45,590 nt of DNA from a virus (IMGVR_UViG_3300031228_000012:1-45590), one strand, 5' to 3'; numbered from the stretch's first letter, positions 9,944 to 21,706 are shown. Notes: generated by a model from the letters alone, not told the origin. Program-made: numbers and translations.

Positions 9944-9975
9944 CCTTTACGTTGTGGTGTTGTGTGACTTAAAGG
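9944..9975 (-). promoter_or_regulatory. Junction unit CCTTTA-N20-TAAAGG (stop codon of 9969..10736 inside one arm, SD of 9282..9932 inside the other)
   Basis: + strand cctttacgttgtggtgttgtgtgacttaaagg. Confidence 0.6.
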
Positions 9976-10736
9976 TGGAAGACCCTGCCGTCCACCGTGA
10001 ACTTCTTGCCCTGGATAGGAACGAGCTGCGGACGCACGTGCCGGCCGTCAACGTCGACCACGACAAAGCCCTGCTGCCAGTTCGCCGTGGCTCCCTTGAG
10101 GTACTGCGCCTGGCGCATATCCATCAGGTTGCCGACCTCGACCCCGGTGAGCTGGTGCCGGATGTTCCCTCCGTAGCCGGTGGTGTGGCTGCCCATGCCG
10201 AGGCGGTGAGTGTGGCCCATGATGAGGCTGACGCCCATCTTCTTGGCCGCGTTCAACGCGGTGTTCCCGGCAATGCGGGACAGCCCGATCCCACCACGGT
10301 GCCCGTGGGTCATGATCCAGTTCGTGGCGAACTCGTAGAACTCCGGCAGCACCGAGACACCAAAGCCCTCGAAGTCCAGCAGGACATCGAAGTCGAATGC
10401 CCGGGTACCCGCCAGAGCGGGTGCGTACTTCTCCAGGTACTCCCGGGGCCGGAGGTCGTGGTTGCCCTCAAGCACCCCGACCGGACCCTGGTAGACATCC
10501 CGAAGCGGCTTCAGGAAGTCCCGCTTGGTCTTCTCCGAGTCCTCGTAGACCGAGCCCTCGAACTCCCCGCGCTTGTCCTTGTTCCAGCGTGACGGCTGGG
10601 GGTAGTCCACCAGGTCACCGATGTGCACAACCTCGTCGGGCTGGGTGGCGCCGATGAAGTTGATGACCGCCTTCAGGGCCTTACGGTCGTGGAAAGGCAG
10701 TTGGGTATCACTGACTACGGCCAGTCGCTTACTCAT
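9969..10736 (-). CDS. Calcineurin-like metallophosphoesterase. Candidate recombination directionality factor for the Bxb1-like integrase.
   Basis: Motifs VSDTQLP, GDLVD, GNHD, GHTH. 255 aa. The RDF role is inferred by analogy with the Bxb1 RDF. Confidence 0.85.
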   Translation of the reverse strand: MSKRLAVVSDTQLPFHDRKALKAVINFIGATQPDEVVHIGDLVDYPQPSRWNKDKRGEFEGSVYEDSEKTKRDFLKPLRDVYQGPVGVLEGNHDLRPREYLEKYAPALAGTRAFDFDVLLDFEGFGVSVLPEFYEFATNWIMTHGHRGGIGLSRIAGNTALNAAKKMGVSLIMGHTHRLGMGSHTTGYGGNIRHQLTGVEVGNLMDMRQAQYLKGATANWQQGFVVVDVDGRHVRPQLVPIQGKKFTVDGRVFHL

Positions 10737-11373
10737 TTGTCTCCTTTACGTTGTTGATTTCCAGAACCGACATCAGTTGCCGGCCGACGTACTCGGCGTA
10801 AACAGGGGGAATACATTCACTGACCCCATTCCTACTCATCCACGGAACGCCCATATCCGCGCGCACGTACGGAACTCCGGAGAAGTTTCCGACAGCGTGA
10901 TAAAAGTCCCCCTCACGTAGTTGCCGCCCCATCTTCACGGTTTTTGCAGTGTGCTCAGCATGCTCGGGTACCGTCAGGGGTATGTTGCTTTCAAACAGCC
11001 TGTGCCTATAGGTATGTATGTCGAACATGGAGCCGCACAGTTCTATCGGGTTTTTCAGCGGTGATCCCGGCACGTTCTCGATTACGTAGGGCTTGCCTAG
11101 GACGTCTAGAGCGCCGCGCATATTTGCAACAAGATCGGGATGTTCATTGCCCTGGATACGCTGGGCCAGGGTGTACGCCTGACAAGGCGGTGATGCGTGG
11201 ATCGCATCGAACTCGTGCCCGTGCTCCTTAACGAACTCGATCGCATCGGCTTGGTGGAACTCGAACGGGTATCGAGGCTGAGGGCTCAGGTCCACGCCGA
11301 CTACTTGAAATCCTGCGTCTGCGTACCCCTTTCCCGCCCCTCCCTGGCAGCAGAACAGGTCTAGTAGTCTCAA
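10729..11373 (-). CDS. Compact DNA (cytosine-5)-methyltransferase
   Basis: Motif I DLFCCQGG, motif IV SPPCQ, motif VI ENVPG, RHRLF, C-terminal IPPVYAEYV. TTG start. Local GC is about 47% in a sampled line. Confidence 0.85.
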   Translation of the reverse strand: MRLLDLFCCQGGAGKGYADAGFQVVGVDLSPQPRYPFEFHQADAIEFVKEHGHEFDAIHASPPCQAYTLAQRIQGNEHPDLVANMRGALDVLGKPYVIENVPGSPLKNPIELCGSMFDIHTYRHRLFESNIPLTVPEHAEHTAKTVKMGRQLREGDFYHAVGNFSGVPYVRADMGVPWMSRNGVSECIPPVYAEYVGRQLMSVLEINNVKETNE

Positions 11374-11379
11374 AGAGCT

Positions 11380-11411
11380 CCTTTACGTTGTCGTGTTGTG
11401 TGTTTTAAAGG
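11380..11411 (-). promoter_or_regulatory. Junction unit CCTTTA-N20-TAAAGG
   Basis: + strand cctttacgttgtcgtgttgtgtgttttaaagg. Stop of 11405..12001 lies inside the distal arm and the SD of the methyltransferase gene inside the proximal arm. Confidence 0.6.
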
Positions 11412-12001
11412 CAAAGTACAGACTTCGCCGGTGGATTCTTCAGGTACTCGATAGCTCGCTCGAAGAACTCGATCTCGTCCCGGGCGTGCCCGAGTACGTC
11501 CCGGTTACAGGATTTACAAAGAAGCCCTCGAACACATGTTCCACACGACACGGGTCCTGGGCAACAAGCGTGTGAGTGGTCGACACTGAGTCGCTTCCGC
11601 CCCGTGCCGGTGGCACGCTGGCAGATGAAGCACCGACCGCCCTGCGCCTTGTATATCGCCTGGTACTGCTCCTCCGAGATCGAGTAAGTCTTCTCGACGT
11701 GAGCCGCCCGGGCTTTGGCCCGGCGGTCAGCGAGTACCTGCCTATGGTGAGTAGCGCAGCGTGGCCCCGGGTACATCGCCTCCCTCTTGGTCGTGATCCC
11801 CTCGGACTTGCAGTCCTTGCACCCCTGGCCGCTCCGCGAGCCTGATGACGAGGTCGCCGTGCTGGTCGAGTTCGATCGTGTAGTAGGCCGTGCCGAACGC
11901 CGCCGCTTCGACGATGATCCGGTCGAGTTCTTCTCGGTACTTCCGGATACCCTCGGGGTTCCGCGCTTGGGCGAAGTAGTTCGTCGCTGTCTTGCGCTCA
12001 C
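11405..12001 (-). CDS. Recombination endonuclease VII (only the C-terminal ~139 codons look genuinely coding in this frame)
   Basis: CKDCK..PGPRCATHHR, CFICQ, LSVDHSH, RGLLCKSCN. The N-terminal 60 aa are S/T/R-rich with lower GC3. See the frame-switch finding. Confidence 0.6.
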   Translation of the reverse strand: MSARQRRTTSPKRGTPRVSGSTEKNSTGSSSKRRRSARPTTRSNSTSTATSSSGSRSGQGCKDCKSEGITTKREAMYPGPRCATHHRQVLADRRAKARAAHVEKTYSISEEQYQAIYKAQGGRCFICQRATGTGRKRLSVDHSHACCPGPVSCGTCVRGLLCKSCNRDVLGHARDEIEFFERAIEYLKNPPAKSVLCL

Positions 12002-12005
12002 TCAC
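11742..12005 (-). CDS. Hypothetical protein / possible N-terminal part of a frameshifted endonuclease VII
   Basis: GTG 12005. GC3 is about 84% down to 11823, then the sequence turns non-protein-like. It overlaps the endonuclease VII frame. Confidence 0.5.
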   Translation of the reverse strand: MSERKTATNYFAQARNPEGIRKYREELDRIIVEAAAFGTAYYTIELDQHGDLVIRLAERPGVQGLQVRGDHDQEGGDVPGATLRYSP

Positions 12006-12135
12006 TCCGACCCCCGGATACCGCAGAGCAGACGATCTGCATTGCCTGCGCCTCGGTGAACCCTGCGCCAACCAGGGAATCAAACCACTCGTGCAACTGA
12101 ACCGCCGCCAACGCGAGAGTCGTGAACTCGTTCAC
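11998..12135 (-). CDS. Small hypothetical protein (45 aa)
   Basis: GTGA overlap with the upstream ORF. Below the track cutoff. Confidence 0.45.
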   Translation of the reverse strand: MNEFTTLALAAVQLHEWFDSLVGAGFTEAQAMQIVCSAVSGGRSE

Positions 12136-12254
12136 TTCGCACCTCGCAGGGTCGCGTCAGCCAAACGCTCGGCGTTCTCGCGCCCCGCGTTGTATTGCTT
12201 CTCGAACTGCTGAACCAGTTCTTCTCGCTGATTTGTATCCTTGATGTCTTCCAT
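12132..12254 (-). CDS. Small hypothetical protein (40 aa)
   Basis: ATG follows TAAGGAGGAGAT. Below the track cutoff. Confidence 0.45.
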   Translation of the reverse strand: MEDIKDTNQREELVQQFEKQYNAGRENAERLADATLRGAK

Positions 12255-12263
12255 ATCTCCTCC

Positions 12264-13976
12264 TTAGAATCCGTTGTCGCCCCAAGAGATTGGGACGGCG
12301 GGTGTTAGTGCCGCCGAACTGAGGCGGGTGCCCGGGATGCGGATGTCCTTCAGCTCGAAGGTCCCCCTCCAGGACGTGTCGCCCTCTCGGGCCTTGGCGA
12401 TGCTCATGGTGCGGACGCCCCCCTCGTTCACGAACTTCAGCAACGTGTCGACGTTGCCTCGGATCGGGAACGCACCTGCCGGTTTGTCCAGGTTGGACTC
12501 CGGCGGGTGGTGGAGCACGAGGATCGTGGCTCCTGGGTTGGCCTCTCGGACCCGGTCGAGCTGGGCGATAGCCCGTGAAGCCTCTCCCGGATTCTCAAGC
12601 ACCAGGCCCTCTGTCGCTCGCATCATGGTGTCTACGACGATCAGGCTGGGCCGGAACGCCTTGACCAACTCCTGATGCTCGGCCACCGACTCATCGCTAG
12701 CGAGTAGCAGCCGCATCTTGCGGAGCTGGACGGAACCCTTCGGCGCCTCCTTCTGGTTGAAGACTTCCCATGCCTTACGGCGCACCGCCAGGCGGCGAGT
12801 GCCTTCTCCAGCGAGGTACATCACTCTGCCCGGGTCGACCTCTCGGCCCCAAGCCTTCGTTCCCGTGGCCATGCCGAGCGCCAGGTCGATACCGGCGAAC
12901 GACTTGCCCGCGTTGGGCGGGCCGAACAGGATCACGGTCTCGTTCTTGGGCAGCAGCCCCTCGATGATCCAGTCCCCGGTCCCCAGGTCAGGGTCGAACT
13001 CCAGGATGTCCTCATCGCTAACCCGTGACGGCCGGACCGGCGAGAGCCGGGCCTTGACTTCCTCCCTGATCTTGGCGTCACGAATCCCCCGAGCAACCTC
13101 GGCCTCGAACGCTTCGTCCTCGTCCTCTGGCAGCTCGAACCTGGCGTGCTGCTGAGCCCACTCGATGAACGACTCAAGCTCGTGCTCGGCCGTGCCGCCG
13201 GACTCGAAGTAGGCTTCCCGGGCCAGTGCCGCCACGTTGTGCGGGTCCTCGCCCAGCGTCATGGCGATGCCGAACAATCTGATCATGCGGAGACGCATGG
13301 TGGCGTTCCGCGTGCCGTCCTCCATCGTGCTGAGGTCCCGCAGGATGCGGTCAAGCTTGTTCTGCATCCGCTGTCGCTCGACCAGCGTCAGCGTAGGCTT
13401 GGTGTCAGCTGTGCGGATCTCGGTCTTGCGCGGCTGCAAGACCTCGGCCACGTCCATGGGGAACTCGGGCAGCTCGGCCACCGTGACCATGCCTCGGGGG
13501 TTGATGTACTCGTACGCCCCGCTGCCCGGCACCTCCGTGGGTGGGGCGATGACGATGCCACCCCGGGCGCGGATGTCCACGCCCTCAGCGACCGTGCCGT
13601 TGTTGTCGGACTTGACGGTGACACCTTCGGGCTCCCGGTAGTACCAGTGCTCACCGCCTGACGGCGTTCGCACCTTGACCGGGGTGTCCGGCAGCTCGAC
13701 ACCGGCTGCTCGCAGCGCGTCGAACCCGTTCTTCCCCTTCTTGGTGTCGATGTCGACCACGACCATGCCGGACCTGCCGGTATTGATGATGACCCCGGTG
13801 AAGCCTGTCCAGTGCTCAGCCAGTTCCTCGGGCTCGGTAGGGTATTCCCCGGCTGCCCACTTCCCGTCCTTGAACGAGAGCTGCTTGTCCCCGTCCACGT
13901 CGACCGACACGTTGCACGGGTACGTGGAGTAGCCCCGCTGGGTTAGCGCGCCTGCGAAGTCAACGACGCGGCTCAT
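12264..13976 (-). CDS. Bifunctional prim-pol primase / RecA-fold (RepA/DnaB-like) helicase
   Basis: N-terminal prim-pol signature VVVDIDTKKGKNG. Walker A FGPPNAGKS, Walker B LIVVDT. Start moved to ATG 13976 after AAAGGAGAA. Confidence 0.9.
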   Translation of the reverse strand: MSRVVDFAGALTQRGYSTYPCNVSVDVDGDKQLSFKDGKWAAGEYPTEPEELAEHWTGFTGVIINTGRSGMVVVDIDTKKGKNGFDALRAAGVELPDTPVKVRTPSGGEHWYYREPEGVTVKSDNNGTVAEGVDIRARGGIVIAPPTEVPGSGAYEYINPRGMVTVAELPEFPMDVAEVLQPRKTEIRTADTKPTLTLVERQRMQNKLDRILRDLSTMEDGTRNATMRLRMIRLFGIAMTLGEDPHNVAALAREAYFESGGTAEHELESFIEWAQQHARFELPEDEDEAFEAEVARGIRDAKIREEVKARLSPVRPSRVSDEDILEFDPDLGTGDWIIEGLLPKNETVILFGPPNAGKSFAGIDLALGMATGTKAWGREVDPGRVMYLAGEGTRRLAVRRKAWEVFNQKEAPKGSVQLRKMRLLLASDESVAEHQELVKAFRPSLIVVDTMMRATEGLVLENPGEASRAIAQLDRVREANPGATILVLHHPPESNLDKPAGAFPIRGNVDTLLKFVNEGGVRTMSIAKAREGDTSWRGTFELKDIRIPGTRLSSAALTPAVPISWGDNGF

Positions 13977-13998
13977 GGTTCTCCTTTCTGTGGGCATG

Positions 13999-14022
13999 AA
14001 AAAGGCCCCTCGATGGGGGCCT
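13999..14022 (-). terminator. Rho-independent terminator upstream of the primase gene
   Basis: On the - strand: AGGCCCC-CATCG-AGGGGCCT followed by TTTTT. Confidence 0.65.
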
Positions 14023-14065
14023 GAAGATTGGGCAGAACCGTACCGGTTTCAGTACGCTTTTGCCC

Positions 14066-14500
14066 CTAGGCGTCGGACGTCTCTGCGACCCACAAGCGGG
14101 CGTAGTGCTCCCTCCAAGCCACCGCTACTGCGTGATTCTCACGCCAGTGGTCGCGGTCCTTGGTCATCGTGTCGAGATGCGCCTCAAGTTCCTTGATGCG
14201 CTCGCTGCGCTCAACGCAGAGGGTGAAGTACTCGCCAAGCTTGCGTCTGAGGTCTTCCTTTTGCTTGATCATGTTGTCCAGCTCGCGCCACGACTCGGAG
14301 CCCTGCTTCTCAATGTTGAGTTCGTCCCACCGCTTCAGCCAGTAGTCCCTGTCTTGCCGGGCCGAATCCCGCTGCTTGGTTGCCAGCTCCAGCTTTTCGC
14401 GGACATACTCGGCCTCGAACTCCTGGAGATCACCGATATCTCCGCCGGTCAGGAGGTAGTACACCTCGCCGTTCATCTCGAAGCGTGGATAGATCTTCAT
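14066..14500 (-). CDS. Coiled-coil hypothetical protein (144 aa)
   Basis: Internal ATG after GAGGAGGAG. Confidence 0.65.
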   Translation of the reverse strand: MKIYPRFEMNGEVYYLLTGGDIGDLQEFEAEYVREKLELATKQRDSARQDRDYWLKRWDELNIEKQGSESWRELDNMIKQKEDLRRKLGEYFTLCVERSERIKELEAHLDTMTKDRDHWRENHAVAVAWREHYARLWVAETSDA

Positions 14501-14501
14501 C

Positions 14502-14615
14502 TCACTCCTCCTCATCAATCCCGGCCAGTGCGGTGTACTCCTCGTCATCTGCCATAGCTTCCATGTCCGACCAAAGGTCGGCCCAGAACACGAACAGGGT
14601 CTTGAAGAAACCCAT
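14502..14615 (-). CDS. Small hypothetical protein (37 aa)
   Basis: TGATG overlap with 14615..14818. Hydrophobic N-terminus MGFFKTLFVFWADLW. Confidence 0.4.
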   Translation of the reverse strand: MGFFKTLFVFWADLWSDMEAMADDEEYTALAGIDEEE

Positions 14616-14818
14616 CAGCCTTTCTCCACTTCCTGAACCTCGGCGGGCATGTCCTCTAGCGGAGCCCAATCAACCCAGCCGCTGTAGTAGTCCCAGTCGG
14701 CGGGTCTCCAGCCCATCTCATGCAGGCTGAAATAGGTGAACGACACAATCTCTCCCGCGTCGTATTCCAGCCGATGAACGCCACCGCTCTGGTTGAACCC
14801 GTAGAACGTCCTCATCAC
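14615..14818 (-). CDS. Hypothetical protein (67 aa)
   Basis: Track ORF. Confidence 0.6.
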   Translation of the reverse strand: MMRTFYGFNQSGGVHRLEYDAGEIVSFTYFSLHEMGWRPADWDYYSGWVDWAPLEDMPAEVQEVEKG

Positions 14819-15042
14819 GCCTCCTTACTTTCTCTGTGCCACGCAGCGAAGTTCTTGCTAAACACCCAGCCGTAGGCCAGGCACGATGCAAGGAACCCCC
14901 ACTGCTCGGTTGTCACGGCGTACACGAACCACAGGGCCTGGGCGCCGATCCCGATCGCCCAGCCGAGCTTGTTCTTGCGACCCGCGAAGTACAGCCCGGT
15001 CACGCCGACCACAGTCAACAACCAGGACCACCACCAGATCAC
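14815..15042 (-). CDS. Small integral membrane protein (2-3 TM helices)
   Basis: IWWWSWLLTVVGVTGLYFAG, LGWAIGIGAQALWFVYAV, WGFLASCLAYGWVF. Confidence 0.7.
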   Translation of the reverse strand: MIWWWSWLLTVVGVTGLYFAGRKNKLGWAIGIGAQALWFVYAVTTEQWGFLASCLAYGWVFSKNFAAWHRESKEA

Positions 15043-15215
15043 GCCTCACCTCGCGGGGCGCGGAGCCGTGGATTCAGCCCTCCTGGTTCCGGTACACGTC
15101 GCTCCCGCCAACCGCAGAATTGGCAGACACATCCCTCGGTGAACCATCGGTTGCGCGCGCAACGCAAGCAGAAGTACGTACCAGGGAGCGGGCCGATCGA
15201 CACTGCTTCCCTCAT
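15039..15215 (-). CDS. Small Cys-rich (zinc-ribbon-like) protein (58 aa)
   Basis: ATGA and GTGA overlaps with both neighbours. CLRC..CVCQFC. Confidence 0.45.
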   Translation of the reverse strand: MREAVSIGPLPGTYFCLRCARNRWFTEGCVCQFCGWRERRVPEPGGLNPRLRAPRGEA

Positions 15216-15502
15216 CTCGCCTCACCTCGCAGGGCACGGAGGACAATACGTGCATCACGGCGGTAGCGATCCTTGACATCATCCGTGGCCTTCTCCCAAT
15301 GGGATTCCGGGACGGGATAGGTCCGATGTGCAGTGGCTAGCCACCAGCCCATTGCGAGTCGATCAACCGTCTCGTCGTCCTCGACCACGGGACGCCAGCC
15401 AGCGTTGATAAGCTCCAGTGCCAGGGACCATCTAGTGCGCTCATGGTCGAGAACCGTGATATCCCTGTGCGCTCGCTCGATCAGTTCGTCTCGGTTACTC
15501 AT
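15212..15502 (-). CDS. Hypothetical protein (96 aa)
   Basis: Internal ATG after AAGGAGGCAAGGC. Confidence 0.65.
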   Translation of the reverse strand: MSNRDELIERAHRDITVLDHERTRWSLALELINAGWRPVVEDDETVDRLAMGWWLATAHRTYPVPESHWEKATDDVKDRYRRDARIVLRALRGEAR

Positions 15503-15639
15503 GCCTTGCCTCCTTGCTGTCTCTCCATCTCTGCCAGGAGGTCCTTCCACACCACTCCCCGAACCTCCTGGGGGATTGTGCGTACGGTCTCCTGGTAGTC
15601 GCGGTCGGACAATCGGCCGTCCTCTTCCTCAGTGCTCAC
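15499..15639 (-). CDS. Small hypothetical protein (46 aa)
   Basis: GTGA/ATGA coupled at both ends. Confidence 0.4.
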   Translation of the reverse strand: MSTEEEDGRLSDRDYQETVRTIPQEVRGVVWKDLLAEMERQQGGKA

Positions 15640-15781: not shown

Positions 15782-15813
15782 CCTTTAGTATTTTGTTCTG
15801 TGTGTTTTAAAGT
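15782..15813 (-). promoter_or_regulatory. Junction unit CCTTTA-N20-TAAAGT
   Basis: + strand cctttagtattttgttctgtgtgttttaaagt. Stop codon 15815-17 is adjacent. Confidence 0.55.
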
Positions 15814-15814
15814 G

Positions 15815-16087
15815 TTACTGCGTGAGCCGGTATCTCTCATCAACGACAAGCACAGCAACCCTTGCAAGAGCGTCCCAGTGCGCGTGTGCGTGGTGCCCAC
15901 AGAACATCAGCGAGCCCAGCTTCTTGCCGCCGACGTAGCGAACGGCGACGAAGACGTACGCCTGCGAATCGCACCGATCACACCGATCTGAAACCTTCAG
16001 TACCGCCCAGTCGCCCGACGCCTGCCGGGCCTGCTCCGCCACCTCCTGCGAGGTGGTCTTGCGCCGCTTGTGCAGTGGAAAGCTCAT
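15815..16087 (-). CDS. Cys/His-rich actinobacterial-type small protein (DRCDRC...FCGHH)
   Basis: Track ORF. The Cys/His pattern suggests zinc binding. Confidence 0.7.
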   Translation of the reverse strand: MSFPLHKRRKTTSQEVAEQARQASGDWAVLKVSDRCDRCDSQAYVFVAVRYVGGKKLGSLMFCGHHAHAHWDALARVAVLVVDERYRLTQ

Positions 16088-16296
16088 CCCTTTCCCTCCT
16101 TCTGTAGGGCCAAAAGCTCAAGCGCTAATACCATCCCGCCAAGGATGTAGCTCTTGGCGCGGGCGTTGGTCCATGCCTCTAGCTGTAGCTCCCGAATCTG
16201 GTTGATAACGTGTCGTTCCGGGGACCCGATCGGCCACAACGGGCGTAGGTGCTCCGCGTTGGTGGTCACGGTCGACGGCAGCTCGGCGCTCATCAA
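16084..16296 (-). CDS. Hypothetical protein (70 aa)
   Basis: Track ORF, 4-nt overlap chain. Confidence 0.6.
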   Translation of the reverse strand: MMSAELPSTVTTNAEHLRPLWPIGSPERHVINQIRELQLEAWTNARAKSYILGGMVLALELLALQKEGKG

Positions 16297-16493
16297 GCCT
16301 CCCTTTGGAGGAGTTGCATCCGAACCTCATTGATCGCCTGCCACAGGGCTGCGTTAACTTCCTCGTTCGTCGCCTTCGGCGGCCAGAACACACGGAGATC
16401 GACCGTGACCCAAGGCATAAACCGGTTGGGGTGCTCGCCGCCGTCTGCCGGATGTGCTACGGACGCATAGGCGCTCGATCGTTGGGACATCAT
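16293..16493 (-). CDS. Hypothetical protein (66 aa)
   Basis: Track ORF, 4-nt overlap chain. Confidence 0.6.
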   Translation of the reverse strand: MMSQRSSAYASVAHPADGGEHPNRFMPWVTVDLRVFWPPKATNEEVNAALWQAINEVRMQLLQREA

Positions 16494-16645
16494 GCCTCCT
16501 TGTAGTGCTGCTCGGCGGCGAGTGAACGCCGCAGGTGTCGAAGCTCCAACAGCGCCAGGTCAAGGTCGGCCTGTTGCGTCATCCTCGGGAGTCTCCCGGC
16601 GAAGTCTTTGACGTACTCGATCAGCTCGTCCAGTTCCTCGATCAT
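16490..16645 (-). CDS. Small hypothetical protein (51 aa)
   Basis: ATG after CAAAGGAGAAGGC. ATGA overlap downstream. Confidence 0.45.
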   Translation of the reverse strand: MIEELDELIEYVKDFAGRLPRMTQQADLDLALLELRHLRRSLAAEQHYKEA

Positions 16646-16652
16646 GCCTTCT

Positions 16653-16684
16653 CCTTTGTCTAGTCACGTCGTGCGGATTAAAGG
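16653..16684 (-). promoter_or_regulatory. Junction unit CCTTTG-N20-TAAAGG
   Basis: + strand cctttgtctagtcacgtcgtgcggattaaagg, abutting stop codon 16685-87. Confidence 0.55.
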
Positions 16685-17488
16685 TCACGCAGAAAACGCG
16701 CAGGCGGTTGCCACAGGGCACCGCCGGCACACGTCAGGGTCCGGCTTCGGCTCCCAGTTCTCGGCCCTGATACCTTCATCAGCCGCGTGGAACCGGTCCA
16801 CTACCTCGGACCTGGTCATCTCTGTCAGGTCGTACGGGTGCTTGGTCGGCTTGCCGGTCTTGCCCATCCAGTAGTCGCCAACGTGTACAGGAACCTTGTA
16901 CGTCTCCTCGATCATGACCGCGTACGTCTTGAGCTGGAACGTCTCGCCAGGGCTAGCACCGGTCTTGACGTCCCGGACGCGCAGCTCCCCGTCATCGCCC
17001 GTCGTGATGACCTGGTCGATGAACCCTTTCACCCGGACTCCGTCGAGGTCGACGTCCAGCCCCAGCTCGATGGCTGGGGTACCATCCGGCGTGATCCAGA
17101 TAGCCTCGTGCGAAGCCTTCTCGGCGTAGGCGATGTACCGGTCGACCATCTCCAAGCCGATCCCGTACCGCCGCTCCACGTCTGCCTCGCCCCGATACTT
17201 ACCCGAGCTGAACCAGAAGTTGAAGTTCGGTGTGTCGGCACACAGCGCGTTGATGCCTTTCGCATACTCCTCGCGGAACACGTCGTGCGCCTGCTCCCGT
17301 GTCATGGTCCGGCCGGACTTCTCCCAAGCCTCTATAGCTGCGTGGTCCGCCTTACCGTGGTCCAGCCATGCGGCTGGCCGCTCCCAAGCCTTTACGATGC
17401 GTGCTAGGTAGTAAGAATGGGGACATTGCTCCCACTGTTTCACCTGCGAAACGCTCCGGTGTTCAGGCGGGGACTGGTTGTCTGACAT
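16685..17488 (-). CDS. Cas4/RecB-like PD-(D/E)XK exonuclease
   Basis: N-terminal QCPHSYY Cys plus C-terminal CRRCPVATAC (4-Cys cluster). GFIDQV..D.K nuclease core. RBS GGAGAGGAGGAAG. Confidence 0.85.
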   Translation of the reverse strand: MSDNQSPPEHRSVSQVKQWEQCPHSYYLARIVKAWERPAAWLDHGKADHAAIEAWEKSGRTMTREQAHDVFREEYAKGINALCADTPNFNFWFSSGKYRGEADVERRYGIGLEMVDRYIAYAEKASHEAIWITPDGTPAIELGLDVDLDGVRVKGFIDQVITTGDDGELRVRDVKTGASPGETFQLKTYAVMIEETYKVPVHVGDYWMGKTGKPTKHPYDLTEMTRSEVVDRFHAADEGIRAENWEPKPDPDVCRRCPVATACAFSA

Positions 17489-17804
17489 CTTCCTCCTCTC
17501 CCTTCCTCATAGCTGGGGCAACTGCCGCACGGCAGTCATGGGCGATGTACCCCCCAGGGCACACGTCCCATAGCTTATACGTCCCGCAGCACGCGGCACC
17601 ACCGAACATCCGGTCATCTTCTGTCACTCTTGTCAAGCCTTCTGAAGAACAGCCCGCTTCGATAAGAACGCGCACGGGACTCATCAGCGTGTCTGTATAG
17701 CGCACAGCGGTGCTCCGGTATACCCGGAGCAGCCGCGCACCCTCGGTCACGAACAGGCTGGCGAACAGGAAGGTCTCACTAACGGCGACCTGGAACTCGG
17801 TCAC
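17463..17804 (-). CDS. Hypothetical Cys-containing protein (113 aa)
   Basis: Track ORF. GTG start. Confidence 0.5.
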   Translation of the reverse strand: MTEFQVAVSETFLFASLFVTEGARLLRVYRSTAVRYTDTLMSPVRVLIEAGCSSEGLTRVTEDDRMFGGAACCGTYKLWDVCPGGYIAHDCRAAVAPAMRKGEEEDVRQPVPA

Positions 17805-17819
17805 GACAACCCCTATACG

Positions 17820-18467
17820 TTAGGGCAGCTTCTTAGGCCGCCGGAAAATGATGTGCGCTTCGTCCGACATCTTGGCCAGCCGGTTAACCCGGATAATCAA
17901 GTCGTCGTCTCTTTCCTCGCGCGGGACATAACGCCACCCGCCGTGCGACTGGGTGGGAGTGGGTTGAACACTCGGGTCGTATTCCAGCACCACGCCAAGG
18001 CTTTCTAATTTGCCGTACCAGGTACGTAGCTTGTGGATCTCCGCATCGGATAGCCGACCACTGCCCAGGGCAACGTACTTGACGTGCTCGCGCAGCCTGT
18101 GGTACCCGCTTGAAATCTTGTGATCGGGCGACACCTCCCACGGGATGTGCTCCATGGCCTCCTGGCGAGGGTCCTTGTACGGCTCCCCACCGTGCTTCTC
18201 GTTCAGGTGCCAGTTCACCGCTTGCGGAGTCACGCCGTATTCCAGCGCGATTTCCGTGCGCGTGAAGCCTTTGTTTAGTAGCCGTATGATCTCTTCTCTG
18301 GATAGCCCAGTGTTCATGTACAGTGCTCCCTGTCTCAGCCACGTGCCCGCTTTACCTCCGGCCTTGTGCGGAGTAAAGGGTACCAGGTTCGGTGGCTGGG
18401 CTGGAGTGGTCCGAACTAGCGAAACCTCTACGCGGGGTTGGCGCGGGGTTGGTTCCCGGGCCTTCAC
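17820..18467 (-). CDS. HTH DNA-binding protein, candidate immunity repressor/early regulator (start uncertain, GTG 18467 or ATG 18317)
   Basis: LSREEIIRLLNKGFTRTEIALEYGVTPQAVNWHL. It is preceded by a repeat-rich untranslated region of about 270 bp. Confidence 0.75.
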   Translation of the reverse strand: MKAREPTPRQPRVEVSLVRTTPAQPPNLVPFTPHKAGGKAGTWLRQGALYMNTGLSREEIIRLLNKGFTRTEIALEYGVTPQAVNWHLNEKHGGEPYKDPRQEAMEHIPWEVSPDHKISSGYHRLREHVKYVALGSGRLSDAEIHKLRTWYGKLESLGVVLEYDPSVQPTPTQSHGGWRYVPREERDDDLIIRVNRLAKMSDEAHIIFRRPKKLP

Positions 18468-18470
18468 CTG

Positions 18471-18485
18471 CCGTCTGTCTAAAGG
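18471..18485 (-). promoter_or_regulatory. Distal-box-like motif directly upstream of the HTH gene start (partial unit)
   Basis: + strand ccgtctgtctaaagg. Confidence 0.35.
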
Positions 18486-18733
18486 TTACGCACGCTCAGG
18501 GGACTAATCTACGTGGTGAACACCACGGCAGAACCCGCGTCATGCGGGCTCCGATCGTGCGTCTCCCCTCTCTCGCCCCTTGAAGGGAGAGACGCCGAGT
18601 GCACGCTAGGGGACTGAACCCCAGGCCCGGTCCTCGCCGGCCGGTCGCGCACTCCATCACACTAGGCTTTGGTATCAAGCCTCTTACTCTCGGGTCAAGC
18701 CTTGAAAAGCTCCGGTAACTCGAACGTGCGTGC

Positions 18734-18850
18734 TTAGTCCTCGCGGTCTCTGTGCTTACGCTTGCGCGTGTACCGCGCCTTGTTCTGGTGCGGCTGTGCC
18801 GCGTTACTGCGTCTAAGCTCTTGGACCTGGCGCACCTTTACGGGTGTCAT
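18734..18850 (-). CDS. Possible small basic protein (38 aa)
   Basis: ATG after AGAGAGG. C-terminus KARYTRKRKHRDRED. Confidence 0.35.
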   Translation of the reverse strand: MTPVKVRQVQELRRSNAAQPHQNKARYTRKRKHRDRED

Positions 18851-18865
18851 GCGGCCGTACCTCTC

Positions 18866-19057
18866 TTAGTAATACGACCCAGCGACGTTGTGAAGCCCTC
18901 CGCTAGGACACTCCAGTGATAGCCTGCCGTGCACCCACCATGTCTCCCAGTTGATACGTGGTGCGTACGTCTCGTTACGCCACGTTTCAGGGTCAACCGC
19001 TCTAACAGTGCGCGCGCATTTCAAGCACTTAGTTCGAATACCCGGCTTCACTTTCAT
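18866..19057 (-). CDS. Hypothetical protein (63 aa), CxxC...ECP
   Basis: Track ORF. Confidence 0.55.
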   Translation of the reverse strand: MKVKPGIRTKCLKCARTVRAVDPETWRNETYAPRINWETWWVHGRLSLECPSGGLHNVAGSYY

Positions 19058-19067
19058 CCTCCCTCTG

Positions 19068-19226
19068 CTACGCAGCAGCCGATACGTCCCTTATGTCAGC
19101 CTCCCGCACGGGCACGACGCGGACAAGCGTCAACCCTTGGAAGATGCGTACCTCTATCGTGTCCGGCGCTGTGCGGACGGTCTCCACGAACACGTCACCG
19201 TGCTGGTGGAAGTCGCGCTCAGCCAT
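19068..19226 (-). CDS. Small hypothetical protein (52 aa)
   Basis: Internal ATG in an ATGGCTGA overlap with the upstream ORF. Confidence 0.45.
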   Translation of the reverse strand: MAERDFHQHGDVFVETVRTAPDTIEVRIFQGLTLVRVVPVREADIRDVSAAA

Positions 19227-19386
19227 CCTCGCGCTCCCACTGGTAGAGCTCAAAGATCTCGACCTCGCTAAACGAGGCCATCTCAATCAAGGCGTCGCGC
19301 TTTTGCTCAGCGGAGTCGCGCGTGCGGTAGTAGTACCCGCCGACCGAACAACCGTCCGATAGCACCACGTAGATTGGTTCAGCCAT
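19219..19386 (-). CDS. Small hypothetical protein (55 aa)
   Basis: Below the track cutoff. It fills the gap between 19226 and 19392. Confidence 0.45.
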   Translation of the reverse strand: MAEPIYVVLSDGCSVGGYYYRTRDSAEQKRDALIEMASFSEVEIFELYQWEREDG

Positions 19387-19391
19387 GTCTT

Positions 19392-19601
19392 TTACCTACC
19401 CTTCCCGTACGGCAGTGGGATTATGTGCTGCTCAACCGGCAGTTCAGCAGTATAGGGATTCTCGATATAGCGGATGGCCGCATAGAATCCATCGCAGAAC
19501 GCGGTATCCACGGGCGACTTCGCCCGCTCACGTTCAAGCCTTTCCCTCATCATCTGTAGAATCGTGCGACCAGCACAGCTAAAGCTCTTACCCTCAGCCA
19601 T
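19392..19601 (-). CDS. Hypothetical protein (69 aa)
   Basis: Internal ATG in an ATGGCTGA overlap with 19594..19779. Confidence 0.5.
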   Translation of the reverse strand: MAEGKSFSCAGRTILQMMRERLERERAKSPVDTAFCDGFYAAIRYIENPYTAELPVEQHIIPLPYGKGR

Positions 19602-19779
19602 GGTTCTTAGCCACCTGCTGTTCACGGAAGTATGCGAACCTGGCCGCGAACCAATTGACTAACACCTCGTCCGCGCCCATCCGCTTAAGCGCATCTGCGG
19701 TGTCCCACGGGTCACCGAAAACATCTTCGGTGATGTCTACAAAGTCGGAGTAGGCGCCCTTTTCATCGGTGCTGTTCAT
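19594..19779 (-). CDS. Hypothetical protein (61 aa)
   Basis: Track ORF. Confidence 0.55.
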   Translation of the reverse strand: MNSTDEKGAYSDFVDITEDVFGDPWDTADALKRMGADEVLVNWFAARFAYFREQQVAKNHG

Positions 19780-19781
19780 CG

Positions 19782-19919
19782 TTAAACCTTCCTATCAATA
19801 CGCGCAACCGCGCGGGAGAATTGTTCCGCCTGCTCACGGAGAACAGCGGCCGTGAATTCAACCGCAACAGCGGCAGCGCCGAATAGGTGCTCGGCCAGAA
19901 TGGTGGCGGTACGCATCAT
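19782..19919 (-). CDS. Small hypothetical protein (45 aa)
   Basis: ATGA overlap with 19916..20299. Confidence 0.4.
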   Translation of the reverse strand: MMRTATILAEHLFGAAAVAVEFTAAVLREQAEQFSRAVARIDRKV

Positions 19920-20299
19920 CGATCCGCGTCCGTAATAGCTTCTAGCGCCAACTCAGCCGCAACGACACGGGCGTATGGGTCGCCGAACGGTGCCCCGTCG
20001 CGGCCAAAGTCGACACCGCCCAGTGACGCAATGGAGTACCCGTCACTGTCGTATGCGATAACTCCCCACAACTCCCATGGGCTCGGGTCGTCGCTAAACG
20101 ATGATGAGTCGCTGTCAGGGTCAATGGCCCAGTCGAATGTGACTCCGGTAGCGCGTGCCCACCGTTCGGCGTCCGCCAACAGCAGAGCGCCGCGCAATGC
20201 GCCAACACCCTCTGTCTCCAGGTCCGGCCGGTAACTCCGCGCGGCATTCTCCTGAAAGAACACAACATCAGCCATCGTGACTAGTGCGTTCATTGCCAT
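19916..20299 (-). CDS. Acidic hypothetical protein (127 aa)
   Basis: Track ORF. AGAGAGG RBS. D/E/S-rich centre (DPDSDSSSFSDDPSPWELW). Confidence 0.65.
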   Translation of the reverse strand: MAMNALVTMADVVFFQENAARSYRPDLETEGVGALRGALLLADAERWARATGVTFDWAIDPDSDSSSFSDDPSPWELWGVIAYDSDGYSIASLGGVDFGRDGAPFGDPYARVVAAELALEAITDADR

Positions 20300-20308
20300 A
20301 CCTCTCTT

Positions 20309-20440
20309 TCAACCAACGATGATTATGGGAGGGGAGCCGAGCCATGTGAGAATGACCGGTGCCAGGTAGATATAGACCATGGGCGATATCATCGTGACCA
20401 TGGCAATGGCGTAGAGTCGCCTAGCCCACCATTTAGACAT
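20309..20440 (-). CDS. Small hydrophobic membrane protein (43 aa)
   Basis: ATG after GGGGAGTGGGGG. MSKWWARRLYAIAMVTMISPMVYIYLAPVILTWLG. Confidence 0.45.
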   Translation of the reverse strand: MSKWWARRLYAIAMVTMISPMVYIYLAPVILTWLGSPPIIIVG

Positions 20441-20466
20441 TGCCCCCACTCCCCATTACTTTGGGT

Positions 20467-20522
20467 CCGTTAATGCATGGCCAAGCACGCGCCTAAGCGC
20501 GTGCCTGACTAAGCGCTAACGG
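20467..20522 (-). repeat. Structured intergenic element, copy A
   Basis: Outer stem ccgtta/taacgg. Inner stem gcacgcgc-ctaa-gcgcgtgc. Shared CATGGC and GACTAA boxes. Confidence 0.65.
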
Positions 20523-20528
20523 GATGTG

Positions 20529-20687
20529 TCAGTAACGAGCACGCTCGCGATCAGCGGCGTACGACTCAGCTTCCCCAACCGACTGGAATAGAATCATGTT
20601 GCCGTTGGCGTCATAACAGAACGTCGCGGTGGCTACGTTCCATACGTAGATACGGTCGAAGGACACGCGCGCCTGGAACCACTGCAT
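20529..20687 (-). CDS. Small hypothetical protein (52 aa)
   Basis: ATG after TAGGGAGTGACA. Confidence 0.45.
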   Translation of the reverse strand: MQWFQARVSFDRIYVWNVATATFCYDANGNMILFQSVGEAESYAADRERARY

Positions 20688-20696
20688 TGTCACTCC

Positions 20697-21059
20697 CTAG
20701 AGGTAGTCGCGGTCGTTGTCGAATTCGATCGGGTCGGTACCCGCGTCCACATTCTTTGCCAGCCGTTCGGCATGGCGGTGCGCGCCGGAGCGTGAGGAGT
20801 AACGCTCAAAACCGGTACTGGTCACGGACACGGAACCATCACCGTTGTCACGGACGAATCGCACTGTGTAGAGACGCGGGTAATTCCCCAGAGCATCACG
20901 CTCACTGGTGACAAAGAATCTGCCACCGTAAAGCGACTCGCTCACGCGTGACCGAAAGAACCGCATGGTGTCCGCACTGAAGTAGTGGGGGTTACCGTGC
21001 CGCGTGACAAAGCGCTTAAGCGCGTCGATATCCTCGAACTTTGGGTATGAGTAGGTCAT
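20697..21059 (-). CDS. Hypothetical protein, tandem paralog 1 (120 aa)
   Basis: Starts MTYSYPKFEDIDAL. It shares the 5' leader TGGGAGACAGAAACA-ATG and alignable sequence over the full length with 21156..21521. Confidence 0.7.
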   Translation of the reverse strand: MTYSYPKFEDIDALKRFVTRHGNPHYFSADTMRFFRSRVSESLYGGRFFVTSERDALGNYPRLYTVRFVRDNGDGSVSVTSTGFERYSSRSGAHRHAERLAKNVDAGTDPIEFDNDRDYL

Positions 21060-21155
21060 TGTTTCTGTCTCCCATCTAGTTGCCCCTGTACGGGCGGACA
21101 ATGCCTAGCCGGTACCGAGTACCGGCGAGACACAATCAGTCCATTAGCGGTGATC

Positions 21156-21521
21156 TCAGAGCCATTCGGCGTCCGTGTCGTACTCGAACGGGTCGGTACC
21201 CGCGTCGACGTTCGCAGCTAGCCACTGGGCGCGCCGATGTGCGGCACTGCGCGATGTGAACCACTCGCGGTGAGCATCGGTAACATCTACGTGCCCACTG
21301 CCGTCGTTGACCCGCACAAAGCGCACTGTGTACGTGCGCGGGTGATCGCCCAGGATGCCGTTCCGTTCGCTAGTCACGAAGAACCGACCGCCGTAGAGAA
21401 CGTCACTAATGCGGGAACTAAAGAACCGCAACGTGGCCGCGTCGAAAAAGTGGTTACCGTGTCCCATGACAAAGCTACGTAGCGCGTCGATATCACGGAA
21501 CTGTGGGTATGAGTACGTCAT
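21156..21521 (-). CDS. Hypothetical protein, tandem paralog 2 (121 aa)
   Basis: Starts MTYSYPQFRDIDAL. Shares YGGRFFVTSER, YTVRFVR, NVDAGTDP with paralog 1. Confidence 0.7.
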   Translation of the reverse strand: MTYSYPQFRDIDALRSFVMGHGNHFFDAATLRFFSSRISDVLYGGRFFVTSERNGILGDHPRTYTVRFVRVNDGSGHVDVTDAHREWFTSRSAAHRRAQWLAANVDAGTDPFEYDTDAEWL

Positions 21522-21559
21522 TGTTTCTGTCTCCCAGCTAGTGATTCGGCTAAGCATCT

Positions 21560-21673
21560 TCAGCGGCTAACGGTGACGATTCGGCCATCCGCGTATCGGA
21601 GCAGCCATCCCTTTTCAGTGCGCGTGACTGTCACGACGTCGCCGTGCCGGTCGCGGTATGTGCCTTCACTCAT
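21560..21673 (-). CDS. Possible small protein (37 aa)
   Basis: ATG after GGGGAGATAAAGCT. Confidence 0.35.
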   Translation of the reverse strand: MSEGTYRDRHGDVVTVTRTEKGWLLRYADGRIVTVSR

Positions 21674-21675
21674 AG

Positions 21676-21706
21676 CTTTATCTCCCCACAGTATGTGATT
21701 TAAAGG
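21676..21706 (-). promoter_or_regulatory. Junction unit CTTTA-N20-TAAAGG
   Basis: + strand ctttatctccccacagtatgtgatttaaagg. Confidence 0.5.

Follow-up and report, generated by a model that had tools for sequence, protein, structure and literature searches.

The window, that is, the whole 45,590-nt stretch of viral DNA analysed here, is the circular 45.5-kb genome of an uncultivated actinobacterial phage and has L5-like architecture. Its genes in L5-like synteny include those for a serine integrase, Pol I, gp49-like and gp53-like proteins, a metallophosphoesterase, endonuclease VII, primase, a Cas4 exonuclease, a gp70-like protein and the repressor. The nearest prophage relatives lie in Amycolatopsis, and nucleotide similarity to Cluster CA phages is limited to 42 nt of the Cas4 gene. 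The repressor gene (17820-18317, - strand) encodes a 165-aa member of the gp71 immunity repressor family with an N-terminal helix-turn-helix (HTH) domain and a C-terminal 'Stoperator' domain; a repressor product of 165 aa was already recorded for the same contig. The protein matches phrog_357 (E=1e-44), is 40% identical to L5 gp71 and aligns over residues 6-161, which cover both DNA-binding domains, with the DNA-bound crystal structure PDB 7R6R (E=1.2e-31). HTH residue R45, essential in TipsytheTRex, is a proline in this repressor. The repressor gene is followed by the gp70-like and Cas4 exonuclease genes, in the same order as in L5.

Five repeat units had been predicted on the - strand (9944-9975, 11380-11411, 15782-15813, 16653-16684 and 21675/6-21706), and all were found there. 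When both strands of the whole window were scanned, CCTTTA-N20-TAAAGG with at most one mismatch was matched 7 times versus 0.03 expected from shuffles, and the core CTTTAANNCRCAC gave 5 exact and 3 one-mismatch matches versus 0.47 expected; with 2 mismatches, the number of core matches was at chance level. The hexamer CTTTAA occurs six times on the - strand, always inside a unit, and is absent from the + strand. Each of the eight core matches (at most one mismatch) is oriented with local transcription and sits at a gene junction, being either intergenic or overlapping a stop codon, and the predicted relations of units to stop codons (inside, abutting or nearby) were correct on checking. Restriction to the leftward arm in one orientation, as originally described, holds for most copies but not for + strand copies at 23290-23321 and, more weakly, at 34021-34052, both of which are oriented with rightward transcription. 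The total comes to about 8-11 sites, nearly all in the early arm. The proposed architecture of two arms and a loop was not upheld; the conserved part is instead an asymmetric 17-nt core, CCTTTAA-NN-CRCACRAC (5' half, box 1; 3' half, box 2), with a separate (T/C)AAAG box (box 3) fixed 20 nt downstream of CCTTTA, giving a 32-nt unit. The 3' arm had also been equated with half of a Shine-Dalgarno sequence, which is the case in 4/6 units (those with upper coordinates 9975, 11411, 15813 and 16684) and not in the remaining two (8534-8565 and 21675-21706).

Unit 1 (8534-8565, - strand; CCTTTAAGTCGCACAAC...TCAAGG) had been noted as a partial copy at 8549-8565 and is in fact a full unit with TCAAGG as its 3' box. 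It lies directly against the TGA that ends the gp49-like gene (8566-9129). The 3' box is within the stem of a conserved hairpin, and the following gene (start 8497) has its own Shine-Dalgarno, GAAGGAGGAG, ~30 nt beyond the unit. Unit 2 (9944-9975, - strand; CCTTTAAGTCACACAAC...TAAAGG(AGG)) takes in the TAA that ends the metallophosphoesterase gene, and the gp53-like gene has its Shine-Dalgarno in the 3' box of this unit. Unit 3 (11380-11411, - strand; CCTTTAAAACACACAAC...TAAAGG(AG)), 91% identical to unit 2 over 34 nt, contains the endonuclease VII stop codon (TAA) and supplies the Shine-Dalgarno of a methyltransferase gene (TTG start 11373). Unit 4 (15782-15813, - strand; ACTTTAAAACACACAGA...TAAAGG(AGG)) begins 1 nt past the TAA stop of the DUF7455 gene (15815-16087), its 3' box again being the Shine-Dalgarno of the following gene, and unit 5 (16653-16684, - strand; CCTTTAATCCGCACGAC...CAAAGG(AG)) is immediately adjacent to the TGA that ends the Cas4-type exonuclease gene. 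Unit 6 (21675-21706, - strand; CCTTTAAATCACATACT...TAAAGC) precedes a small early gene whose Shine-Dalgarno, GGGGAGA, falls within the 'spacer'; a 56-nt hairpin repeat lies directly upstream, and the same layout is found at position 4975 of the related genome L001.

The second predicted partial copy, at 18471-18485 (- strand; CCTTTAGACAGACGG), is weak (no 3' box, a poor 3' half and a PWM score of 3.5) and probably non-functional or a relic. A better variant, unit 7, was located at 18349-18379 (- strand; CCTTTACTCCGCACAAGG-...-TAAAGC, 19-nt gap), 30 nt upstream of the likely ATG of the repressor gene (18317), and is predicted to be the repressor promoter with an overlapping operator (-35 TTTACT, 17-nt spacer, -10 TAAAGC). 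Homologous arrangements that end in a -10 TAAAGT precede the repressor gene in L001, L162, L003, L127, L128 and L129, and in L5 a site with one mismatch lies 66 nt ahead of gene 71. At 23290-23321, a predicted early leftward promoter carries an inverted double operator: on the - strand, CCTTGCGGAACGCACGATGTGTGCCCTAAAGT provides a -35 TTGCGG, an 18-nt spacer and a -10 TAAAGT, and on the + strand a regular site with one mismatch, ACTTTAGGGCACACATC, covers the predicted -10 of this divergent control region. L001 has the same inverted double 31-nt arrangement at 4229-4262, with its own 3' half (CGAAC / CGAGC). The early promoter at 23290-23321 is not among the calls of a generic sigma-70 scan. Some 60 nt downstream of it, the sequence at 23210-23227 (- strand; CTTGACAACTACACAAGG), with a perfect TTGACA and one additional base before ACACAA, was assigned by eye as a putative site variant; in L5, too, several sites follow shortly after Pleft. 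In the rightward direction, 34021-34052 (+ strand; CCTTTAGAACGAATAAT...TAAAGC), flanked by the genes for the tail terminator and the major tail protein, is only tentatively assigned as a unit because its 3' half poorly matches the consensus; the structural arm of L5 has 5-6 co-oriented sites.

L5 stoperators, which read CTTGACA[G/T]CCACC with transcription, occupy four of the same junctions: the sites after gene 49, after gene 54 (position 36265), after gene 69 (position 42963) and upstream of gene 71 correspond to units 1, 2, 5 and 7, respectively. Ten related genomes each have an asymmetric motif of their own at L5 stoperator junctions, among them CCTTTAAAACGA[G/T]C in L001 and L162, CCTTTAAG[A/C]CGAAC in L130, GTTTACAACTTAGCG in L003, TTTTACCCGTGCCAC in L127 and L128, CTTGAACAACGGCCAC in L129, GGTTGACTAGGAAGACT in L133 and TTTTGACAACGGGA in L160. 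Such lineage-specific motifs are present at the unit 2 junction in L001, L003, L127, L128, L129, L130, L133, L160 and L162, and sites are present at the unit 1 junction in L001, L130, L127 and L129 and at the unit 5 junction in L001, L003, L127, L128, L129 and L162. All of the relatives' motifs have a TTGACA-like hexamer at the start and a variable half after it, the pattern of published Cluster A, A15 and CA stoperators (PMC5559632, PMC13313380, PMC6550527).

Among close relatives, the 5' half CCTTTAA is common, as is the HTH recognition helix of the repressor. The 3' half varies (CRCAC, CGAGC, CGAAC), and so do those positions in the second DNA-binding domain that contact bases. The repressors of the window and L001 have an identical recognition helix (PQAVNWHLNEK), and box 1 is common to both phages; 5/6 positions aligned to the base contacts of the 7R6R Stoperator domain (K75, D78, K79, K81, D104, R108) differ between the two, and box 2 differs also. 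The correspondence between protein and site is nonetheless loose, since L162 and L001 have box 2 in common despite differing Stoperator domains. A correlation between residue 45 and the fourth site base fails across the relatives compared, with L003 and L127 keeping a basic residue at position 45, yet having T as the fourth site base.

The original prediction had offered, as one of two readings, stoperator-like asymmetric sites for one of two HTH proteins, among them that of 17820-18467. This reading is supported by the homology of that gene's product to the gp71/7R6R repressor family, the location of units at L5 stoperator junctions where relatives have lineage-specific versions, the overlap of copies with the predicted early and repressor promoters, and the failure of the hairpin alternative considered below. 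Judged from sequence comparison, the units are probably (at a rough probability of 0.8) operator and 'stoperator' sites of an L5-type immunity repressor, and the gp71-family repressor encoded in the window is proposed as their trans-acting factor. In a lysogen, a repressor monomer would bind the asymmetric core CCTTTAA-NN-CRCAC(RAC), with the N-terminal HTH domain on the 5' half (CTTTAA), which oncoming RNA polymerase would meet first, and the C-terminal Stoperator domain on the 3' half (CRCAC). In the published system, RNA polymerase reaches the HTH first and site positions 8-9 touch the start of the Stoperator domain (PMC9283540). Bound repressor may occlude the -35 or -10 of the predicted promoters at 23290-23321 and 18349-18379, and at gene junctions it would block elongating polymerase in an orientation-dependent manner, such that the early arm is silenced.

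Cluster A phages (L5 gp71, Bxb1 gp69, TipsytheTRex; PDB 7R6R) share with the window a homologous two-domain monomeric repressor, the genome architecture, and asymmetric 13-17-bp sites at junctions or overlapping stops, all oriented with transcription, in which a 5' half resembling the -35 TTGACA is followed by a lineage-variable half; with L5 in particular, the four junctions are shared, as is the presence of copies both at the early promoter and ahead of the repressor gene. The window differs from Cluster A in having TAAAG (CTTTA) for the 'invariant' TCAAG (CTTGA) and a proline for R45, about 8-11 sites, nearly all in the early arm, rather than 20-30, an inverted double site as early-promoter operator, and an extra (T/C)AAAG box exactly 20 nt past CCTTTA in a 32-nt unit. 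L5-like systems outside Mycobacterium include those of Rhodococcus Cluster CA (stoperator TGTCTATTGTCAAG, 25 sites) and Gordonia subcluster A15 (stoperator GGGGATTGTCAAG), each with its own consensus that keeps TCAAG, unlike the TAAAG of the window, and that of Streptomyces R4-like phages, whose low count (8 or more sites) is comparable to that of the window; a fixed downstream box is reported in none of the three. The unit had not been recognised from any described phage system, which stands for the sequence itself and not for the kind of system. The repressor of Streptomyces phage phiC31 also binds many early-region repeats, several beside promoters, a likeness to the units here, although the phiC31 repeats are symmetric 17-bp sites and that repressor is unrelated to the gp71 family. 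Low site number, the near-absence of sites outside the early arm, TAAAG in place of a TCAAG that every described stoperator has, the change of R45 to proline, the uncalled early promoter and the loose protein-site match count against the stoperator reading, as does the fixed-distance 3' box, which has no place in the L5 model.

An analogy had also been drawn with the start-associated sequence of Cluster K, a motif reportedly 13 bp long, with the Shine-Dalgarno inside it and the start codon 3-8 nt away. Both it and the extended form (SAS/ESAS) are, like the units, repeated single-orientation intergenic actinophage motifs upstream of gene starts, some with flanking inverted repeats. The analogy fails because the conserved core here is without the ribosome-binding site, lying upstream of and separable from the Shine-Dalgarno, and the core varies with repressor lineage.

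The units could instead be primarily promoters, with box 1 (TTTAAN) serving as -35 and box 3 (TAAAGN), 18 nt away, as -10. On this view the early arm would consist of a series of small operons, perhaps repressor-gated or read with a phage factor, whose transcripts would start 6-9 nt past box 3, often at the start codon (leaderless). The geometry is that of the predicted early promoter (TTGCGG-N18-TAAAGT) and of the L001/L162 repressor promoters (TTTATG-N18-TAAAGT), the position of box 3 is constant even in units with the Shine-Dalgarno elsewhere, and the start codon lies 6-9 nt past box 3 in most Shine-Dalgarno-type units. Actinobacterial SigA promoters, however, need T at the last -10 position (TANNNT), and this T is present in 1 of ~24 junction units versus 4/5 predicted promoters in the clade, the exception among the latter being the window's own repressor promoter (TAAAGC). 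In GCAAGG and ACAAGG boxes the second-position A is missing as well, TTTAAG makes a poor -35, and the sigma-70 scan found no promoter at any unit; L5 and more distant relatives have sites at the same junctions without a -10-like box, and the gp53-like protein, labelled 'sigma' in some databases, has no significant sequence or fold similarity to sigma factors. We consider a primary promoter role unlikely.

Binding by a phage protein other than the repressor, such as the gp53-like protein or the 85-aa protein of 8052-8309 with a predicted coiled coil and HTH, is very improbable. The inverted pair CTTTA...TAAAG would fit a dimer, and every relative has a unit ahead of its gp53-like gene, but the half-site centres are 25 bp (~2.4 helical turns) apart and hence on roughly opposite helix faces, and a DNA-binding fold was not detectable in the gp53-like protein. 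Relatives with wholly different junction motifs all have the same recognition helix (ATVSRIVRG) in the 85-aa protein, and therefore this protein cannot read the variable half. The orthologous L5 sites, moreover, belong to gp71, being experimentally established gp71 sites according to those passages of PMC5712189 and PMC9283540 that cite Brown et al. 1997.

There is scarcely any room for the other originally proposed reading, in which a CCUUUA:UAAAGG mRNA stem masks the next Shine-Dalgarno and is opened only when a ribosome terminates at the upstream stop, and computation has largely refuted it. Complementary arms are present in units 2 and 3, box 1 overlaps or adjoins the stop codon, and box 3 begins the Shine-Dalgarno in 4 units of the window. 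Against this, the energy of the box 1:box 3 stem ranges from -2.9 to +6.2 kcal/mol and is below -2 in just 4/22 units, no pair among the 22 units is altered on both sides in a compensated change, arm pairing is 75.8% versus 76.6% in shuffles, and breaks affect each of three pairs, the outermost and the two innermost, in 36-50% of units. The 'loop' CRCACRAC is more conserved than the 3' arm and shifts in concert between phages, a change that a passive loop would not need; in about half of units across the clade the Shine-Dalgarno is not in box 3, and there are copies at promoters and, forming DNA palindromes, on the opposite strand. Least credible are RNA signals for host factors (boxA/nut-like antitermination or Cluster K-like translation signals): CUUUAA is the boxA core (rrn boxA, GCUCUUUAACAA) and the units lie in a single orientation just upstream of gene starts, but the 3' half of a host-factor site is not expected to change in concert from phage to phage, no boxB-like hairpin follows the units, there are 8-11 copies per operon instead of one near the promoter, the core lies at least 20 nt upstream of the Shine-Dalgarno, unlike start-associated sequences, and inverted copies occur at a promoter (23290-23321).

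For the downstream box within the stoperator reading, our tentative view is that a 32-nt operator-promoter cassette was copied to give the units. Boxes 1 and 3 would be the counterparts of the -35 and the -10 (TAAAGT), respectively, in the two predicted promoters, and the 3' box would have been retained at junctions for local reasons, mostly as the start of an AAGGAGG Shine-Dalgarno. Operator and stoperator control by the gp71-family repressor would most likely represent a known mode of prophage silencing, from which this phage would depart in the sequence of its sites and in having a further conserved box; what is new is the TAAAG half-site replacing TCAAG and the second box, (T/C)AAAG, 20 nt downstream.

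From its sequence, the repeat system of the window most probably belongs to the L5-type repressor-stoperator class, in which it has its own site sequence and an altered architecture. Systems of this kind are already known, and the mechanism is largely a known one in a new sequence; what is new is the TAAAG half-site, an inverted double operator at a predicted early promoter and a fixed second box downstream of each site. All five units of the original prediction were present on the - strand (9944-9975, 11380-11411, 15782-15813, 16653-16684 and 21675-21706), and the pattern CCTTTA-N20-TAAAGG with up to one mismatch was matched seven times in the window, where shuffles that preserve dinucleotides gave an expectation of 0.03. 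Their description as two arms and a loop did not hold: read on the - strand, the conserved part was an asymmetric core, CCTTTAA-NN-CRCACRAC (box 1, CCTTTAA, and box 2, the CRCAC-type 3' half), separated by about 9 variable bases from a second conserved box downstream, (T/C)AAAG(G/C) (box 3). The core CTTTAANNCRCAC was found in five exact and three one-mismatch copies, against 0.47 expected, beside two or three weaker copies; two-mismatch matches were no more frequent than chance. CTTTAA occurred six times on the - strand, in units only, and not once on the + strand. Markov-corrected k-mer counting placed TAAAGGAG, CGTAAAGG and CCTTTAA near the top, just below Shine-Dalgarno words; in uncorrected counting the unit words were drowned by GC-rich coding words. 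The units at 9944 and 11380 were 91% identical across 34 nt. Rfam gave no match at the units when the entire window was searched at gathering thresholds, nor at permissive thresholds over 18300-23600, which holds the units at 21675 and 18349 and the promoter region.

Two sites first listed as partial copies were reassigned: that at 8549-8565 is real and belongs to a full unit, 8534-8565 (-), and in place of that at 18471-18485 a better variant lies at 18349-18379 (-). The motif had also been described as having one orientation, with no copy noticed in those rightward-arm junctions that had been read. Co-orientation with local transcription was borne out for eight of eight copies and for a weaker copy at 34021. 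The motif is not wholly limited to the leftward arm, having + strand copies at 23290-23321 (a one-mismatch site at the predicted early promoter) and 34021-34052 (weak, upstream of the major tail protein gene). All copies were intergenic or lay across a stop codon. Adjoining the unit at 21675-21706 is one copy of a 56-nt repeat (21707-21762 and 20467-20522, both -, 77% identity) with a perfect 9-10-bp hairpin, GAGCACGCG..GCGCGTGCTC, and no T-run; between the copies lie the tandem paralogous genes 20697-21101 and 21156-21557 (phrog_4655), and the repeat could be a terminator, a processing site or an operator of a second regulator.

The genome has the layout of mycobacteriophage L5 and the Cluster A phages, at a G+C content of 62.5%. 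Bases 1-127 are repeated without a difference at 45464-45590, which makes the contig a circular or permuted assembly, with a genome length of 45,463 bp. On the leftward early arm lie, in order, genes for a serine integrase, Pol I, an 85-aa HTH protein, gp49-like and gp53-like (PF25684) proteins, a metallophosphoesterase, a methyltransferase, endonuclease VII, a primase-helicase, a Cas4-type exonuclease, a gp70-like protein and a 'transcriptional repressor' (phrog_357). It is followed by a rightward structural arm with three tRNAs close to its beginning; the arms meet near 23,300-23,600, where cos probably lies as well. Nucleotide searches detected no close relative in the phage collection; their only matches were to Cluster A Pol I and phosphoesterase genes (72-75% identity) and, over 42 nt, to Cluster CA. 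Just upstream of the tRNA-Asp/Asn/Trp cluster (25838-26093), an abiF RNA match was obtained with Rfam at 25523-25560 (+; 44.3 bits, gathering score 37); a listed ORF that overlaps the tRNAs (25878-26666) is probably spurious.

L5 was scanned for its published 13-mer. Right-arm sites, read in the direction of transcription as CTTGACA[G/T]CCACC, lay directly at gene junctions, usually just 5' of the Shine-Dalgarno, and four of them occupied the positions of window units: 3' of gene 54 (metallophosphoesterase) and 5' of gene 53 (window unit 9944-9975), 3' of gene 69 (exonuclease; 16653-16684), 3' of gene 49 (8534-8565) and, with one mismatch, 66 nt upstream of gene 71 (18349-18379). The L5 structural arm held five to six further co-oriented sites. 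As in the L5-type class, the window has many copies of one asymmetric 13-14-bp sequence, placed at or between gene ends and co-oriented with transcription. It has fewer of them (eight with at most one mismatch and two or three weaker, whereas 20-30 are typical of Cluster A), and in place of the TCAAG that is invariant at site positions 9-13 of the class it has TAAAG (CTTTA in the direction of transcription). Sites of two relatives, L003 and L127, also lacked TCAAG and had TTTAC, and the invariance, defined on cultivated clusters, appears to be a property of those clusters and not a requirement of the mechanism. In this class one site also serves as operator over the early lytic promoter (Pleft), close to where the two arms join, for which the double site at 23290-23321 is a candidate. 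The repressor of the class binds as a monomer and blocks elongation in an orientation-dependent manner, as would be predicted for its homologue in the window.

A repressor of the gp71 family is encoded at 17820-18317 (-); its 165-aa product is also on record from the same contig. It was 40% identical to L5 gp71, matched phrog_357 (E=1e-44) and aligned over residues 6-161, covering both DNA-binding domains, with 7R6R (E=1.2e-31), the crystal structure of the DNA-bound TipsytheTRex immunity repressor. The HTH is N-terminal and the Stoperator domain C-terminal. Protein search of viral contigs with the repressor gave no match, and a metagenome scan with a repressor alignment recovered distant relatives only (34-41% identity).

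Contigs encoding a homologue of either the repressor or the gp53-like protein were collected as relatives and gave ten syntenic loci, each with its own asymmetric motif at the same junctions: CCTTTAAANCGAGC in L001 (10 copies), CTTTAAAACGA[T/G]C in L162, CCTTTAAG[A/C]CGAAC in L130, GTTTACAACTTAGCG in L003, TTTTACCCGTGCCAC in L127 and L128 (an Amycolatopsis prophage and a relative), CTTGAACAACGGCCAC in L129 (Amycolatopsis lexingtonensis), GGTTGACTAGGAAGACT in L133 and TTTTGACAACGGGA in L160. Two of these junctions, 5' of the gp53-like gene and 3' of the gp49-like gene, carried sites in at least eight relatives. All of these motifs begin with a TTGACA-like hexamer followed by a lineage-dependent half, the same pattern as in the published Cluster A, A15 and CA consensus sequences. 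Such concerted change at orthologous junctions indicates a phage-encoded reader instead of passive RNA folding or a factor of the host. Viral contigs were also scanned for the pattern CCTTTAA-N19-TAAAGGA, which gave at least 120 matching stretches; among the 80 loci listed these were single chance matches only. In close relatives of L001 (L131, at 4448-4495 and 5841-5915, and L158 and L159), box 1 was changed from CCTTTAAA to CC[C/G]CTAAA at two separate junctions with almost unaltered flanks, which may reflect either a switch in HTH specificity or decay of the sites after escape from, or loss of, the repressor.

The repressor of this class binds DNA as a monomer, the HTH is the first part met by the oncoming polymerase, site positions 8-9 contact the start of the Stoperator domain, and neither domain binds DNA by itself (McGinnis et al. 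2022, PMC9283540). By analogy with that complex, the HTH would read the 5' half of the window site and the Stoperator domain the 3' half. The recognition helix PQAVNWHLNEK was identical in the window and L001 repressors, and the two phages have box 1, CCTTTAA, in common; at the positions aligned to K75, D78, K79, K81, D104 and R108 they differed in five of six, and box 2 was CRCAC in the window versus CGAGC in L001. L162 and L001 have a common box 2 despite non-identical Stoperator domains. R45, which contacts a guanine in 7R6R, is replaced by proline in the window repressor, and the G of CTTGA by T in the window site, a correspondence that is no more than suggestive; in L003 and L127 a basic residue is retained at this position, yet the site has T.

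At 23290-23321 the - strand reads CCTTGCGGAACGCACGATGTGTGCCCTAAAGT, with a predicted -35 (TTGCGG), an 18-nt spacer and a -10 (TAAAGT), and a regular site, ACTTTAGGGCACACATC, spans the predicted -10 on the + strand. The same 31-nt arrangement, CTTGTCAAACGAACCGCGCTCGGCCTAAAGT, was found at the head of the L001 early arm, with the box 2 of that phage on both strands. We take this element to be the predicted counterpart of Pleft, with a double operator; a generic promoter scan made no call there. Upstream of the repressor gene in the window, L001, L162, L003 and L127-L129, a variant of the site had TAAAGT (in the window TAAAGC) 17-20 nt downstream of it, which looks like a predicted repressor promoter that overlaps an operator. 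The predicted early promoter has a long leader, in which lies a tRNA T-arm-like string, CTACGGTTCGAGTCCGTACG (~23003-23022, -), and similar strings occur in the leaders of L003 (~215) and L001 (~4670); neither ARAGORN nor Rfam made a call on them. The equivalent place in L5 holds a non-coding region that is toxic and highly expressed (PMC5712189).

Box 3 was recognized by an AAG 22-24 nt after CCTTTA in nearly every unit of the four CCTTTAA-type genomes, with a one-base shift in four, and was missing from L5 and the more distant relatives. About half of the units have it as the beginning of a Shine-Dalgarno, AAGGAGG; elsewhere it is a predicted promoter -10, part of a conserved hairpin 3' of the gp49-like gene or the stretch between Shine-Dalgarno and ATG, or is without evident local role. 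Box 1 and box 3 are as far apart as the -35 and -10 of the two predicted promoters. SigA-type promoters have a -10 hexamer TANNNT placed 16-19 nt from a -35-like hexamer. No elements other than the predicted early promoter and, in relatives, the repressor promoters had that arrangement (TAAAGT). The final T was present in four of five predicted promoters of the clade, the exception being the window repressor promoter (TAAAGC), and almost never in junction units, where the position is G or C. Our best guess is that the units would have spread as copies of an operator-promoter cassette, the 3' box then losing its -10 function and serving mostly as a Shine-Dalgarno instead; stoperators are documented to recombine in relatives of L5.

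It seems to us unlikely that the stoperator of this clade is a two-part 32-nt element in which (T/C)AAAG, an inverted copy of the HTH half-site, has a function of its own. In that case box 3 could be a weak or conditional -10, so that each unit at a junction would act as an internal promoter gated by the repressor, or it could be contacted by a second protein or by another repressor molecule, and the early arm would be regulated unit by unit, beyond roadblocks alone. Use of box 3 as an HTH-only half-site by a second repressor is unlikely, since the isolated HTH domain has been published not to bind DNA; an inverted box 2 beside box 3 was absent from junction units, the predicted early promoter being its sole location. 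Around the Shine-Dalgarno, the units at 9944 and 11380 share the context CAACGTAAAGGAG, which has a third copy, without box 1, before the metallophosphoesterase start (10741-10757, -), so it is one translation-initiation module common to three consecutive genes. The hairpin 3' of the gp49-like gene (~8498-8545, -) is G+C-rich, GGAGTCAAGGC..GCCTTGGCTCC, and is kept at the same junction in L001, L130, L131, L127 and L129; it includes box 3 of the unit at 8534-8565 and, in the window, also a 6-codon mini-ORF.

An RNA hairpin in which box 1, as an anti-Shine-Dalgarno, masks the next ribosome-binding site had been proposed beside protein binding, and was not supported: the stem was marginal or unstable and without compensatory changes. 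Stem energies of box 1 with box 3 ranged from -2.9 to +6.2 kcal/mol and were below -2 in only 4 of 22 units. In the alignment of these 22 units from three genomes, no pair was altered on both sides, pairing stood at 75.8% versus 76.6% in shuffles, and the outermost and two innermost pairs were each broken in 36-50% of units. The only persisting pairs are C-G, U-A and U-A, a stem unable to close a loop of more than 20 nt. As to the binding protein, the 85-aa candidate (8052-8309, -; N-terminal coiled coil, C-terminal HTH) drops out as the reader, since its recognition helix, ATVSRIVRG, was invariant in every relative examined while the motifs change; the invariance suggests a conserved target for this protein. 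The gp53-like protein (9282-9932, -) is named 'sigma-K factor' or 'sigma24' in some records, a label left unsupported by PDB searches, which gave no sequence match and no significant fold match (all-helical AlphaFold2 model, pLDDT 78.5; best fold match E=0.75, sigma factors only E=2-3.6). Start-associated sequences of Cluster K reportedly consist of a conserved 13-mer, 3-8 nt from the start codon, with the Shine-Dalgarno inside it, whereas in the window the start codon is 38-46 nt downstream of the core, which contains no Shine-Dalgarno.

The fixed downstream box lies outside what the current stoperator model explains. The probable membership in the L5-type class extends the repressor-stoperator system to an uncultivated actinobacterial phage lineage and to Amycolatopsis prophages. 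The 'invariant' TCAAG half-site is itself able to evolve, through the series TTGAC, TTTAC, TTTAA, the step from TTTAC to TTTAA being accompanied by loss of the arginine whose guanine contact is seen in the crystal structure. Across the relatives the HTH half of the site varies separately from its Stoperator-domain half, a natural series on which the two-domain recognition model could be tested and from which orthogonal pairs of repressor and operator could be designed for actinobacteria.
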